DNA from: Escherichia coli
GTDB lineage: Bacteria; Pseudomonadota; Gammaproteobacteria; Enterobacterales; Enterobacteriaceae
Reading direction: 5' to 3' (one strand)
DNA: 64,000 nucleotides
Assembly (NCBI RefSeq): GCF_003334385.1
Contig: NZ_QOWN01000002.1
Shown: positions 20,314 to 56,971 of the stretch, one piece after another
Layout of the letters: each line of letters begins with the position of its first letter
Position numbering within the stretch: position 1 is the first letter of the stretch
Made by a program: the position numbers and the translations under genes
The notes under the pieces: model-generated
The model's input: the letters and a program-made list of their open reading frames with translations, nothing else
What the model was told of the DNA's origin: nothing
Database searches by the model: none

Positions 20314-20431
20314 CGTTCACCTCATTCGCTATATATTGTCATATATAGCGATATTTTAGGCAAAGAACGACTTTTGCGCACGCTATTTTTTCATGCTTGT
20401 TTAAGACGTAATCCCGTAAGAGATAAACCTA

Positions 20432-24122: not shown

Positions 24123-24127
24123 AAAAA

Positions 24128-24155
24128 TGCCCGGTTGTGAAAAGCAACCGGGCAT
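24128..24155 (+). terminator. yghA terminator hairpin
   Basis: gcccggttg tgaaaag caaccgggc stem-loop right after the yghA stop. Confidence 0.5.
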
Positions 24156-27798: not shown

Positions 27799-27837
27799 CG
27801 ATTTTCCCCGTTCCCGGTTGCTGTACCGGGAACGTAT

Positions 27838-28794
27838 TTAATTCCCCTGCATCGCCCGCATTCTTGCCGCATCTTCCCCCGGCGTCACACCGAAGTAACG
27901 TTTAAACTCACGGCTAAATTGCGATGCGCTTTCATAGCCGACGCGCATCGCTGCTGCGCTGGCCTTCATGCCGTCATGGATGATCATCATCCGCGCCTTA
28001 TGCAGACGGTAATTCTTCAAATACTGCAACGGCGAGGTACTGGTGACAGACTTAAAATTATGGTGGAACGCCGATACGCTCATGTTGGCTTCTGCCGCCA
28101 GTTGCTCGACGCTCAGGTTTTCGGTGTATTTATTCTCAATCCGTTTCAGCACGCGGCTAATCAGACTGAAGTGAGTCTGGCGACTGACCAGCGCCAGTAA
28201 CGCGCCGCCGCAAGGTCCGGTCAGCACGTAGTACAGAATTTCGCGGATGATCTGTTTGCCGAGAATACGCGCATCCAGTGGTCGCTCCATCACGTCGAGT
28301 AACCGCTCCGCCGCGCATAAAATCTCTTCTGATAACGTGGCGGAGTTAATCCCGCTGGCTGCCATCGACGGCTGGAAATGCTCATCTTCGCCAATGTCCA
28401 TCAACAGTTCCTGTAACTGCAAAATATCGACATTGAGACGCAACCCTGCCAGCGGCACCTCTGACGTGGCATAGGTTTCGCACTCAAACGGCAACGGCAC
28501 CGTCAGCAGCAGGTATTCATTGGCATCATAACGAAACACGCGTTCATTGATATAACCGATTTTATGCCCGGAAAAGAGAATTATGATGCCAGGCTCGTAC
28601 ATCACCGGTGTACGTGCGAAAGGCGTCTCGCCATACAACAAACGCACATCGGGCAACAGTTCTGACAAACTATTTTCTTTATTTTTCAGTTTATTAACTT
28701 TATCCGCCAGCAAGCGGCAAATCTCTTCACGTTTCATATCGCGTAATTTCTTAGGAATAATGCGGCAATTTGATTGTGCGCAATTTTGTAGCAT
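27838..28794 (-). CDS. yqhC: AraC-family transcriptional activator YqhC
   Basis: 318 aa from [10 protein letters not shown]; C-terminal AraC HTH (...[17 protein letters not shown]). The ORF track extends 57 codons upstream across the yqhD start and is rejected. Confidence 0.85.
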
Positions 28795-28930
28795 TTCTCC
28801 AGCACTCTGGAGAAATAGGCAAGACATTGGCAGAAATGAGCATTGAGAGCCAGGGCGCTGGCGATCACAATGAAAAACATCAGGCAGATCGTTCTCTGCC
28901 CTCATATTGGCCCAGCAAAGGGAGCAAGTA

Positions 28931-30094
28931 ATGAACAACTTTAATCTGCACACCCCAACCCGCATTCTGTTTGGTAAAGGCGCAATCGCTGGTTTACGCG
29001 AACAAATTCCTCACGATGCTCGCGTATTGATTACCTACGGCGGCGGCAGCGTGAAAAAAACCGGCGTTCTCGATCAAGTTCTGGATGCCCTGAAAGGCAT
29101 GGACGTGCTGGAATTTGGCGGTATTGAGCCAAACCCGGCTTATGAAACGCTGATGAACGCCGTGAAACTGGTTCGCGAACAGAAAGTGACTTTCCTGCTG
29201 GCGGTTGGCGGCGGTTCTGTACTGGACGGCACCAAATTTATCGCCGCAGCGGCTAACTATCTGGAAAATATCGATCCGTGGCACATTCTGCAAACGGGCG
29301 GTAAAGAGATTAAAAGCGCCATCCCGATGGGCTGTGTGCTGACGCTGCCAGCAACCGGTTCAGAATCCAACGCAGGCGCGGTGATCTCCCGTAAAACCAC
29401 AGGCGACAAGCAGGCGTTCCATTCTGCCCATGTTCAGCCGGTATTTGCCGTGCTCGATCCGGTTTATACCTACACCCTGCCGCCGCGTCAGGTGGCTAAC
29501 GGCGTAGTGGACGCCTTTGTACACACCGTGGAACAGTATGTTACCAAACCGGTTGATGCCAAAATTCAGGACCGTTTCGCAGAAGGCATTTTGCTGACGC
29601 TAATCGAAGATGGTCCGAAAGCCCTGAAAGAGCCAGAAAACTACGATGTGCGCGCCAACGTCATGTGGGCGGCGACTCAGGCGCTGAACGGTTTGATTGG
29701 CGCTGGCGTACCGCAGGACTGGGCAACGCATATGCTGGGCCACGAACTGACTGCGATGCACGGTCTGGATCACGCGCAAACACTGGCTATCGTCCTGCCT
29801 GCACTGTGGAATGAAAAACGCGATACCAAGCGCGCTAAGCTGCTGCAATATGCTGAACGCGTCTGGAACATCACTGAAGGTTCCGATGATGAGCGTATTG
29901 ACGCCGCGATTGCCGCAACCCGCAATTTCTTTGAGCAATTAGGCGTGCCGACCCACCTCTCCGACTACGGTCTGGACGGCAGCTCCATCCCGGCTTTGCT
30001 GAAAAAACTGGAAGAGCACGGCATGACCCAACTGGGCGAAAATCATGACATTACGTTGGATGTCAGCCGCCGTATATACGAAGCCGCCCGCTAA
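28931..30094 (+). CDS. yqhD: NADPH-dependent aldehyde reductase YqhD
   Basis: 387 aa from [22 protein letters not shown]; iron-type alcohol dehydrogenase fold (GGGSVLDG). Confidence 0.95.
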
Positions 30095-30198
30095 GCTTTT
30101 TACGCCTCAAACTTTCGTTTTCGGGCATTTCGTCCAGACTTAAGTTCACAACACCTCACCGGAGCCTGCTCCGGTGAGTTCATATAAAGGAGGAACGT

Positions 30199-31026
30199 AT
30201 GGCTAATCCAACCGTTATTAAGCTACAGGATGGCAATGTCATGCCCCAGCTGGGACTGGGCGTCTGGCAAGCAAGTAATGAGGAAGTAATCACCGCCATT
30301 CAAAAAGCGTTAGAAGTGGGTTATCGCTCGATTGATACCGCCGCGGCCTACAAGAACGAAGAAGGTGTCGGCAAAGCCCTGAAAAATGCCTCAGTCAACA
30401 GAGAAGAACTGTTCATCACCACTAAGCTGTGGAACGACGACCACAAGCGCCCCCGCGAAGCCCTGCTCGACAGCCTGAAAAAACTCCAGCTTGATTATAT
30501 CGACCTCTACTTAATGCACTGGCCCGTTCCCGCTATCGACCATTATGTCGAAGCATGGAAAGGCATGATCGAATTGCAAAAAGAGGGATTAATCAAAAGC
30601 ATCGGCGTGTGCAACTTCCAGATCCATCACCTGCAACGCCTGATTGATGAAACTGGCGTGACGCCTGTGATAAACCAGATCGAACTTCATCCGCTGATGC
30701 AACAACGCCAGCTACACGCCTGGAACGCGACACACAAAATCCAGACCGAATCCTGGAGCCCATTAGCGCAAGGAGGGAAAGGCGTTTTCGATCAGAAAGT
30801 CATTCGCGATCTGGCAGATAAATACGGCAAAACCCCGGCGCAGATTGTTATCCGCTGGCATCTGGATAGCGGCCTGGTGGTGATCCCGAAATCGGTCACA
30901 CCTTCACGTATTGCCGAAAACTTTGATGTCTGGGATTTCCGTCTCGACAAAGACGAACTCGGCGAAATTGCAAAACTCGATCAGGGCAAGCGTCTCGGTC
31001 CCGATCCTGACCAGTTCGGCGGCTAA
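30199..31026 (+). CDS. dkgA: 2,5-diketo-D-gluconate/methylglyoxal reductase DkgA (aldo-keto reductase)
   Basis: 275 aa, AKR family, SD aggagg upstream; preceded by hairpin caccggagc / gctccggtg. Confidence 0.95.
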   Translation: MANPTVIKLQDGNVMPQLGLGVWQASNEEVITAIQKALEVGYRSIDTAAAYKNEEGVGKALKNASVNREELFITTKLWNDDHKRPREALLDSLKKLQLDYIDLYLMHWPVPAIDHYVEAWKGMIELQKEGLIKSIGVCNFQIHHLQRLIDETGVTPVINQIELHPLMQQRQLHAWNATHKIQTESWSPLAQGGKGVFDQKVIRDLADKYGKTPAQIVIRWHLDSGLVVIPKSVTPSRIAENFDVWDFRLDKDELGEIAKLDQGKRLGPDPDQFGG

Positions 31027-31225
31027 CATGCAAATTCTCCCGGTGGCGGTAATGTTCCGCTACCGGACTTTTCAGAAATCATTTATTCCCCTCGCGTCCC
31101 GCCCGTTGTTACTCTTCCTTGTTCAGGAATGCCAAATATAAGGACATCATCATGCAGAGCCGGAAGCTCTTAAAAGAACAACTCATCTATATCCGGGATA
31201 AACGCAACGGAGAGGTGAAAAACAG

Positions 31226-34722: not shown

Positions 34723-34832
34723 TTTGCTTCCAGAAATGATAAAAAAATAATCAAAGGCCGGGGATTATAAGCCGGAACGAAAGAGAAATCGAAAGGTATT
34801 CCATACTCGCCCTCCTCGGGCGAGTATGAAGA

Positions 34833-55189: not shown

Positions 55190-55226
55190 GCCACGATACC
55201 GGATGGCACTCGCCATCCGGTAATTG

Positions 55227-56940: not shown

Positions 56941-56971
56941 CAGAAGTTGTCCAGCGCATGGACAACTTCTG
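56941..56971. terminator. Hairpin after zupT
   Basis: Perfect 12-bp inverted repeat cagaagttgtcc / ggacaacttctg. Confidence 0.55.

Follow-up and report, generated by a model that had tools for sequence, protein, structure and literature searches.

The genes yqhD and dkgA of Escherichia coli, which belong to a unit activated by YqhC, are separated by a spacer of 104 nucleotides (nt), and this spacer contains a hairpin that is almost certainly an RNA structure under selection. We describe herein an analysis of the spacer in a 64-kb stretch of E. coli DNA (hereafter the window, to which all positions refer unless MG1655 is named) and in related loci. The hairpin is probably not primarily a terminator. 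The upstream half of the spacer contains two conserved blocks with the look of promoter elements, and these stay beside dkgA, not yqhD, where other DNA parts the two genes. To judge from its sequence, the spacer most likely holds an internal, stationary-phase-type promoter of dkgA. The explanation that we favor, still tentatively, is that the spacer represents a promoter-plus-leader module of dkgA, in which the hairpin serves as a leader stem-loop for stability or processing rather than as a terminator.

The spacer occupies positions 30095-30198 and has the same sequence, with no differences, as MG1655 3156519-3156622 (window position = MG1655 position - 3126424). A 1.1-kb region around the hairpin was found in 5413 of 5426 complete E. 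coli genomes, where the neighboring genes are annotated as yqhD and dkgA; the gene identities in the window agree with the RefSeq annotation. In all 5413 genomes, the spacer is single-copy and at least 99% identical, and RefSeq places no annotation in it. An earlier note, made from the sequence of this DNA, had drawn attention to a stem caccggagc / gctccggtg between the yqhD stop codon and the Shine-Dalgarno (SD) sequence AGGAGG of dkgA. The stem is present and its position agrees, but it is part of a larger, perfect inverted repeat of 11 nt (CTCACCGGAGC / GCTCCGGTGAG, at 30155-30165 / 30168-30178). As RNA, the repeat can form only 10 perfect pairs, because an eleventh would leave a loop of 2 nt.

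30155-30178, plus strand: hairpin, with a 5' arm at 30155-30164, a CCUG loop at 30165-30168 and a 3' arm at 30169-30178

The stem is GC-rich. An energy of about -18 kcal/mol was computed for the hairpin and one of -31.9 kcal/mol for the spacer in full (z = -3.3 relative to shuffles). The window contains 11 distinct perfect hairpins with stems of 10 bp or more, whereas 40 dinucleotide shuffles of the full 64 kb averaged 0.48. This is an excess of about 20-fold, and chance does not account for the stem. An origin from a repeat element, such as the repetitive extragenic palindromic (REP) element, the bacterial interspersed mosaic element or the enterobacterial repetitive intergenic consensus (ERIC), was ruled out, given that the hairpin occurs at one place per genome in the 5413 E. 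coli genomes; the ERIC-like insertions seen in spacers of other genera (below) are separate from it.

The comparative sample consisted of 80 loci with YqhD orthologues. The dkgA gene follows yqhD across the Enterobacteriaceae, and also in Serratia and Yersinia, where the spacers are longer. Across 20 aligned genera, standard pairs account for 94% of the stem positions, a figure that drops to 24-50% if the partner strand is shifted. Eight of the 10 stem pairs vary on both sides, and none of 500 shuffles reached the observed values. A covariance model built from this alignment detected the element in 46 enterobacterial loci, always at this location; their stems comprise 33 different sequences, and 91% of the positions are paired. 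When 27 leaders were submitted to RNAalifold, the only helix predicted was the hairpin stem, with compensatory changes at nine of its 10 pairs. Identity to E. coli, computed here and below across 22 other genera, is 0.69 in the arms of the stem and 0.39-0.58 in the loop and linkers, where third codon positions of yqhD and dkgA provide a near-neutral baseline of 0.54. The length of the loop ranges among relatives from 3 to more than 20 nt, and the ACCGG...CCGGT core of the inverted repeat is nearly invariant. Mismatches are of the G.U type in 14 cases and of the A.C type in four, as expected of an RNA from the plus strand; these counts exclude the outermost pair, which is unreliable and would add five C.A cases, so that the asymmetry is supportive only. 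Because the stems differ and nonetheless stay paired through compensatory changes, we conclude that it is the structure of the RNA that has been selected. The earlier note was thus right to see in the hairpin a functional-looking feature of the RNA between the two genes of the YqhC-activated unit, as the clear structural selection indicates.

The remainder of the spacer is not featureless. Its elements, together with the flanking genes, are as follows (identities are to E. coli).

28931-30094, plus strand: yqhD coding sequence (NADPH-dependent aldehyde reductase), equal to MG1655 3155355-3156518, with a TAA stop codon at 30092-30094
30097-30101, plus strand: T-run right after the yqhD stop codon, identity 0.72, which would fall near -51 to -47 in the proposed promoter
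30097-30160, plus strand: match to Rfam RF02753, "ES173 sRNA" (99 bits, gathering score 90, E = 9e-22)
30112-30121, plus strand: block 1, CTTTCGTTTT, identity 0.94, the most conserved stretch of the spacer, at -36 to -27 of the proposed promoter
30133-30143, plus strand: core of block 2, TCCAGACTTAA, extended -10-like, with the hexamer CAGACT at 30135-30140
30145-30154, plus strand: CA-rich unpaired linker, TTCACAACAC, identity 0.51 (neutral), with ACA (MazF) sites at 30148-30150 and 30151-30153
30179-30187, plus strand: AU-rich single-stranded stretch between hairpin and SD, UUCAUAUAA, not a U-tract, identity 0.40 (neutral)
30188-30193, plus strand: SD sequence of dkgA, AGGAGG, 5 nt before the ATG, identity 0.91
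30199-31026, plus strand: dkgA coding sequence (methylglyoxal / 2,5-diketo-D-gluconate reductase A), with its ATG at 30199

Block 2 as a whole (30127-30144) has an identity of 0.85. The CAGACT hexamer follows a C and is itself followed by a TAA that is invariant or nearly so. With the hexamer numbered as a -10 element, C(-13), A(-11), T(-7) and T(-6) are each found in 47 of 47 loci, and it is on such positions that a -10 element most depends. The core of block 2 agrees at nine of 11 positions with KCTAYRCTTAA, the consensus for sigma-S (Weber 2005, as quoted in PMC5650638), in which the C at -13 and the downstream TAA are selective for sigma-S. This match alone is not significant, and the case for a promoter depends on which positions are conserved. 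In its C(-13), A(-11), T(-7) and downstream TAA, block 2 resembles the extended -10 of sigma-S and sigma-70 promoters; it misses two positions of the consensus, and the spacer contains no recognizable -35 element. Block 1 is unlike TTGACA (2/6) and may be an activator site, and the T-run would lie at a position like that of an UP element. From the position of the -10 element, a transcript of dkgA alone is predicted to start at about 30147-30148, which would place the stem 5-8 nt from the start.

When compared by eye with consensus sequences, blocks 1 and 2 provided no convincing fit to the marbox or to sites of PurR, FadR, PhoP, PmrA, CpxR, GntR-type regulators, sigma-E, sigma-32 or sigma-54. 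A YqhC half-site was also considered, since CATTTCGTCCAGAC in the spacer resembles half of a 24-bp palindrome, ATTTCTCCAGCACTCTGGAGAAAT, in the yqhC/yqhD intergenic region. It was dropped: genomic SELEX (systematic evolution of ligands by exponential enrichment) yielded a single YqhC peak, in the yqhC/yqhD spacer (PMC8249747), which makes it unlikely that YqhC acts on the inner blocks. The palindrome itself (28793-28816) is a perfect 10-bp hairpin, whose minus-strand 3' arm includes an SD-like GGAG of yqhC and the first two bases of its start codon (coding sequence 27838-28794, minus strand). Judging by this arrangement, the palindrome could, as RNA, occlude initiation of yqhC translation, beyond any role in DNA binding.

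The promoter-like module travels with dkgA and not with yqhD. Klebsiella, Raoultella and Kluyvera have additional hairpins, or elements resembling terminators, between the yqhD stop codon and block 1, and the blocks, the hairpin and the SD remain together beside dkgA. Such additions point to a fuller uncoupling of the two genes in these three genera. The extra element is a GC-rich hairpin, CCTCTCC...GGAGAGG, or is terminator-like, and was noted in four loci of Klebsiella and Raoultella (at about 3665-3720) and in one of Kluyvera. In two Serratia loci (L051 and L056) and in Yersinia nurmii (L065), a whole gene lies between yqhD and dkgA. All three retain a -10-like element about 60-70 nt before the dkgA ATG, followed in L051 by a small hairpin. 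The sequences that align with CAGACT before dkgA are TAGACT in Cedecea, TAAACT in Yersinia, TAGAAT and TAAAAT in Serratia, and ATTTCGACTACAAT in Y. nurmii; TACAAT is also found in this set. Insertions of ERIC-like elements were seen in Citrobacter, Pluralibacter and one Enterobacter and are mostly located 3' of the hairpin, so that the gap from the -10 element to the hairpin stays at 11-15 nt and the distance from the hairpin to the SD becomes 100 nt or more; in one Citrobacter locus (L025), the insertion is between blocks 1 and 2. Because the blocks stay beside dkgA when other DNA parts it from yqhD, we regard the module as linked to dkgA.

Some further features of these spacers deserve mention. 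A second conserved -10-like motif, (C/T)TGCTAGGCTTTAG, is located directly after yqhD in seven loci of Serratia and some Yersinia, including L065; in L051 and L056, it lies 5' of the extra gene. ERIC-like or palindromic mobile elements appear repeatedly in the spacers of other genera, with six loci having them after the hairpin. In two Buttiauxella loci, a longer palindromic element stands in place of the hairpin, and in Enterobacter sp. Cy-643 an insertion of ~165 nt lies between two copies of the hairpin ACACCGGGCTTGCCCGGTGTTT.

The earlier note had proposed that the hairpin might be a partial terminator or a processing site that sets the ratio of yqhD to dkgA expression, and had named the mapping of 3' ends as one check. 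The first half of this proposal is poorly supported. In E. coli, the stem is followed by UUCAUAUA (in a longer stretch, UUCAUAUAAAGG), which contains no U-tract. Among 39 distinct combinations of hairpin and tail in relatives, five have at least five Ts in 8 nt, and one has a T-run of at least four. The published Term-seq tables of Adams 2021 (PMC7815308) list no 3' end within 3156519-3156622 under any of three conditions (LB at an optical density (OD) of 0.4, LB at an OD of 2.0, and M63). A scan with a terminator consensus made no call at the hairpin; it also missed the terminator of dkgA:

31040-31073, plus strand: dkgA terminator, with a stem CCGGTGGCGG / CCGCTACCGG (hairpin 31040-31066) followed by ACUUUUC

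This is the real terminator of the yqhD-dkgA unit. A Term-seq 3' end at MG1655 3157494, i.e. window position 31070, lies in its tail, in the sheet for LB at an OD of 2.0 only (PMC7815308). The spacer hairpin resembles such intrinsic terminators in having a 10-bp GC-rich stem and a short loop, and differs from them in that neither a run of Us nor a mapped 3' end follows the stem. Moreover, vanillin raised the two proteins together, YqhD by 35-fold and DkgA by 41-fold (PMC6561319).

A partial intrinsic terminator or attenuator, at which some of the polymerases from the yqhD promoter stop so that dkgA is reduced relative to yqhD, is therefore distinctly unlikely, even though the stem is stable and GC-rich with two Us directly after it. 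True T-runs do occur in a few relatives (TTTTT in Cedecea neteri; see also the five T-rich tails mentioned above), and glycolaldehyde is quoted as inducing yqhD mRNA by 26-fold and dkgA mRNA by 10-fold (PMC6115493). The U-tract, however, is missing in E. coli and unconserved while the stem is conserved, and the induction of DkgA protein at least equals that of YqhD. The induction ratio of the mRNAs also fits a higher uninduced level of dkgA. In addition, the hairpin lies 3' of the promoter-like block, and so transcripts of dkgA alone would be aborted equally. A somewhat different possibility, also unlikely, is that the hairpin forms the stem-loop at the 3' end of a small RNA (sRNA) derived from the 3' untranslated region (UTR) of yqhD, namely ES173 at about 30097-30180, with the conserved block as its body or seed. 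The match to the ES173 model exceeds the gathering score, sRNAs from 3' UTRs are usually built in this way, with a strongly conserved sequence ahead of a conserved stem-loop, and most insertions fall 3' of the hairpin. The model, matched end to end on the same locus and strand, spans the upstream 60% of the spacer and stops within the 5' arm, and therefore the family as defined leaves out the hairpin. Across genera, 81.7% of the positions of the ES173 fold are paired, compared with 79.8% in shuffles; three of its 13 pairs vary on both sides, and many are invariant or broken. ES173 was accordingly set aside as a structured RNA: with no clear covariation to support its fold, the region appears constrained as a sequence and not as a structure, its conserved core coincides with the promoter-like elements of the spacer, and its invariant positions fit a -10 element. 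The hairpin moreover lacks the U-tail that the 3' ends of Hfq-type sRNAs need, the Term-seq data contain no 3' end there, and the block stays with dkgA where yqhD is separated from it.

Control at the level of translation, in which the stem-loop makes access to the ribosome-binding site of dkgA differ between a long and a short transcript, appears quite improbable. Here, upstream sequences would pair with the SD or the start codon in the read-through RNA only. Consistent with this, ACGCCUC (30102-30108) is paired with the surroundings of the SD when the spacer takes its fold of lowest energy. In many genera, the segment just after the -10 element (3 nt from it in L036 and L037) is complementary to the start-codon region (GUCAUUAC/GUAAUGAC, 8 bp in locus L037 and 7 bp in L036), an AUGCA/UGCAU pairing recurs in several genera, and duplexes within a species are slightly better than those across species (permutation p = 0.013, uncorrected for phylogeny). 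In E. coli, however, the pairing amounts to just 4 bp (GUUC/GAAC, 30144-30147 with 30192-30195, -4.2 kcal/mol), RNAalifold returned no such helix, and the candidate anti-SD tract after the yqhD stop codon is poorly conserved, with an identity of 0.39. Furthermore, several loci, of Citrobacter among others, accommodate ERIC-like insertions longer than 100 nt that separate the hairpin from the SD. Still harder to credit is a palindromic DNA operator, to which a dimeric repressor would bind between about +8 and +31 relative to the internal promoter. The repeat is perfect and its core nearly invariant, but orthologous operators normally keep their sequence and not their symmetry alone, whereas the repeat occurs as 33 distinct stems with coordinated changes on both arms. 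The excess of G.T-type over A.C-type asymmetries (14 to four, with the outermost pair excluded) and the wide range of loop lengths also argue against an operator. Finally, we give little credence to a dual-output switch, in which an internal sigma-S-type promoter, possibly dependent on an activator, is located between a segment that pairs with the SD or start codon and the stem-loop. If this were true, the read-through and dkgA-only leaders would differ in translation efficiency and stability, the YqhD:DkgA ratio would be set differently in aldehyde stress and in stationary phase, and ES173 would be a by-product.

How might a promoter-plus-leader module of dkgA work? Its elements would run in the order of T-run, -35-region block (CTTTCGTTTT), sigma-S-type extended -10 element (TCCAGACTTAA), CA-rich start segment, stem-loop, AU-rich stretch and strong SD. 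There would then be two RNAs that encode dkgA: the yqhD-dkgA read-through transcript driven by YqhC, and a shorter species that contains dkgA alone or arises by processing. The short RNA would begin a few nt 5' of the stem-loop, with the hairpin at about +7 to +31, and the stem-loop may hinder attack or scanning by RNase E that depends on the 5' end, an effect on half-life that we infer. In the read-through RNA, the AU-rich stretch at 30179-30187 may be a target of an endonuclease, and after a cut there the stem-loop would block 3' exonucleases and mark the end of the yqhD segment. Stem-loops that stabilize mRNA are exemplified by the hairpin in the 5' UTR of ompA, by REP or hairpin barriers such as that in malE-malF, and by papBA processing. 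Like these, the spacer hairpin is GC-rich and untranslated, lacks a U-tail, lies near a strong ribosome-binding site and beside AU-rich RNA, and is conserved as a structure rather than as a sequence. It differs from REP in being single-copy, and from the ompA type in its longer predicted 5' overhang of 5-8 nt.

Published expression data provide some further points of contact. During the transition to stationary phase of O157 Sakai, yqhE (= dkgA) is listed among the genes that go up, and yqhD is not (PMC2241611). In the Term-seq tables, the 3' end of dkgA appears for LB at an OD of 2.0 only, and yqhD has no entry (PMC7815308). The spacer is in this respect comparable to internal operon promoters that uncouple a distal gene from the regulator of its operon, in that it contains a conserved promoter-like module and that dkgA, and not yqhD, is reported to go up on entry into stationary phase. 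A study of the MazF regulon (Sauert 2016, Table 1) reports cleavage of dkgA at an ACA 47 nt before the AUG (PMC5001579). This boundary, at about 30152, precedes the stem by 3 nt and could also mark where a transcript starts. A cleavage or coverage boundary so close to the stem makes the other half of the earlier proposal, that the hairpin is a processing site, plausible. We found no paper describing the spacer hairpin or an internal dkgA promoter, within a limited access to the literature.

Several observations weigh against a promoter-plus-leader module. Matches to KCTAYRCTTAA at nine of 11 positions are common by chance, with 66 in the window compared to 74 expected. The sigma-70 consensus is poorly represented (3/6 at -10 and 2/6 at -35), and the scan tool made no promoter call there. 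The parts seen of the supplements of Kim 2012, Ettwiller 2016 and Cho 2014 list no transcription start in the spacer, and no direct report that dkgA depends on RpoS was found in the literature accessible to us. The -47 boundary was inferred from coverage profiles, and the text of that study gives no individual validation of dkgA (PMC5001579). The existence of an ES173 entry implies RNA over the "promoter" block, as read-through would produce, although an RNA derived from the 3' UTR would account for it as well. The silence of Term-seq says little about the read-through RNA, inasmuch as yqhD is barely expressed without aldehydes and was uninduced under those conditions. The predicted 5-8 unpaired nt on the 5' side of the stem, moreover, exceed the 2-4 that are usual for classical 5'-terminal stabilizers.

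Other features of the window are mentioned here for completeness. A small open reading frame of 10 codons begins with a GTG at 30174, inside the stem, and overlaps the dkgA start; it has no ribosome-binding site. In E. coli EC102, an isolate from bovine milk (L082), the insertion sequence IS1A interrupts dkgA in codon 5 (30207-30215) with a 9-bp target duplication, TCCAACCGT, and as a consequence the RefSeq annotation of dkgA is shortened there. This insertion lies outside the spacer and is uninformative about the hairpin. Nine other perfect hairpins with stems of 10-15 bp were found, at 1034-1060, 10189-10223, 13767-13792, 20326-20351, 24127-24155, 27809-27834, 34802-34828, 55197-55222 and 56941-56971. 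The one at 27809-27834 is flanked by yghB and yqhC, which are convergent, and probably serves as a terminator for both.

The kinds of element described here are all well known, and the result refines the architecture of an operon without introducing a new principle. The earlier note had caught the hairpin and the SD, and had missed the internal-promoter look of the remaining spacer and its match to ES173; this promoter-like remainder changes the context of the hairpin and offers another route to the yqhD:dkgA ratio. Both genes are much used and deleted in metabolic engineering, for example in work on furfural, vanillin, glycolaldehyde, glutaraldehyde and isobutanol, and yqhD-dkgA is usually handled as a plain operon of two genes under YqhC. 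Should dkgA possess a conserved promoter of its own and a structured leader, then deletion or rewiring of yqhC or of the yqhD promoter would not silence dkgA, and replacements of yqhD, such as those of the Keio type, would keep or lose the module depending on their end points. By the same token, the ES173 entry may describe a promoter-and-leader region, and not a regulatory RNA.

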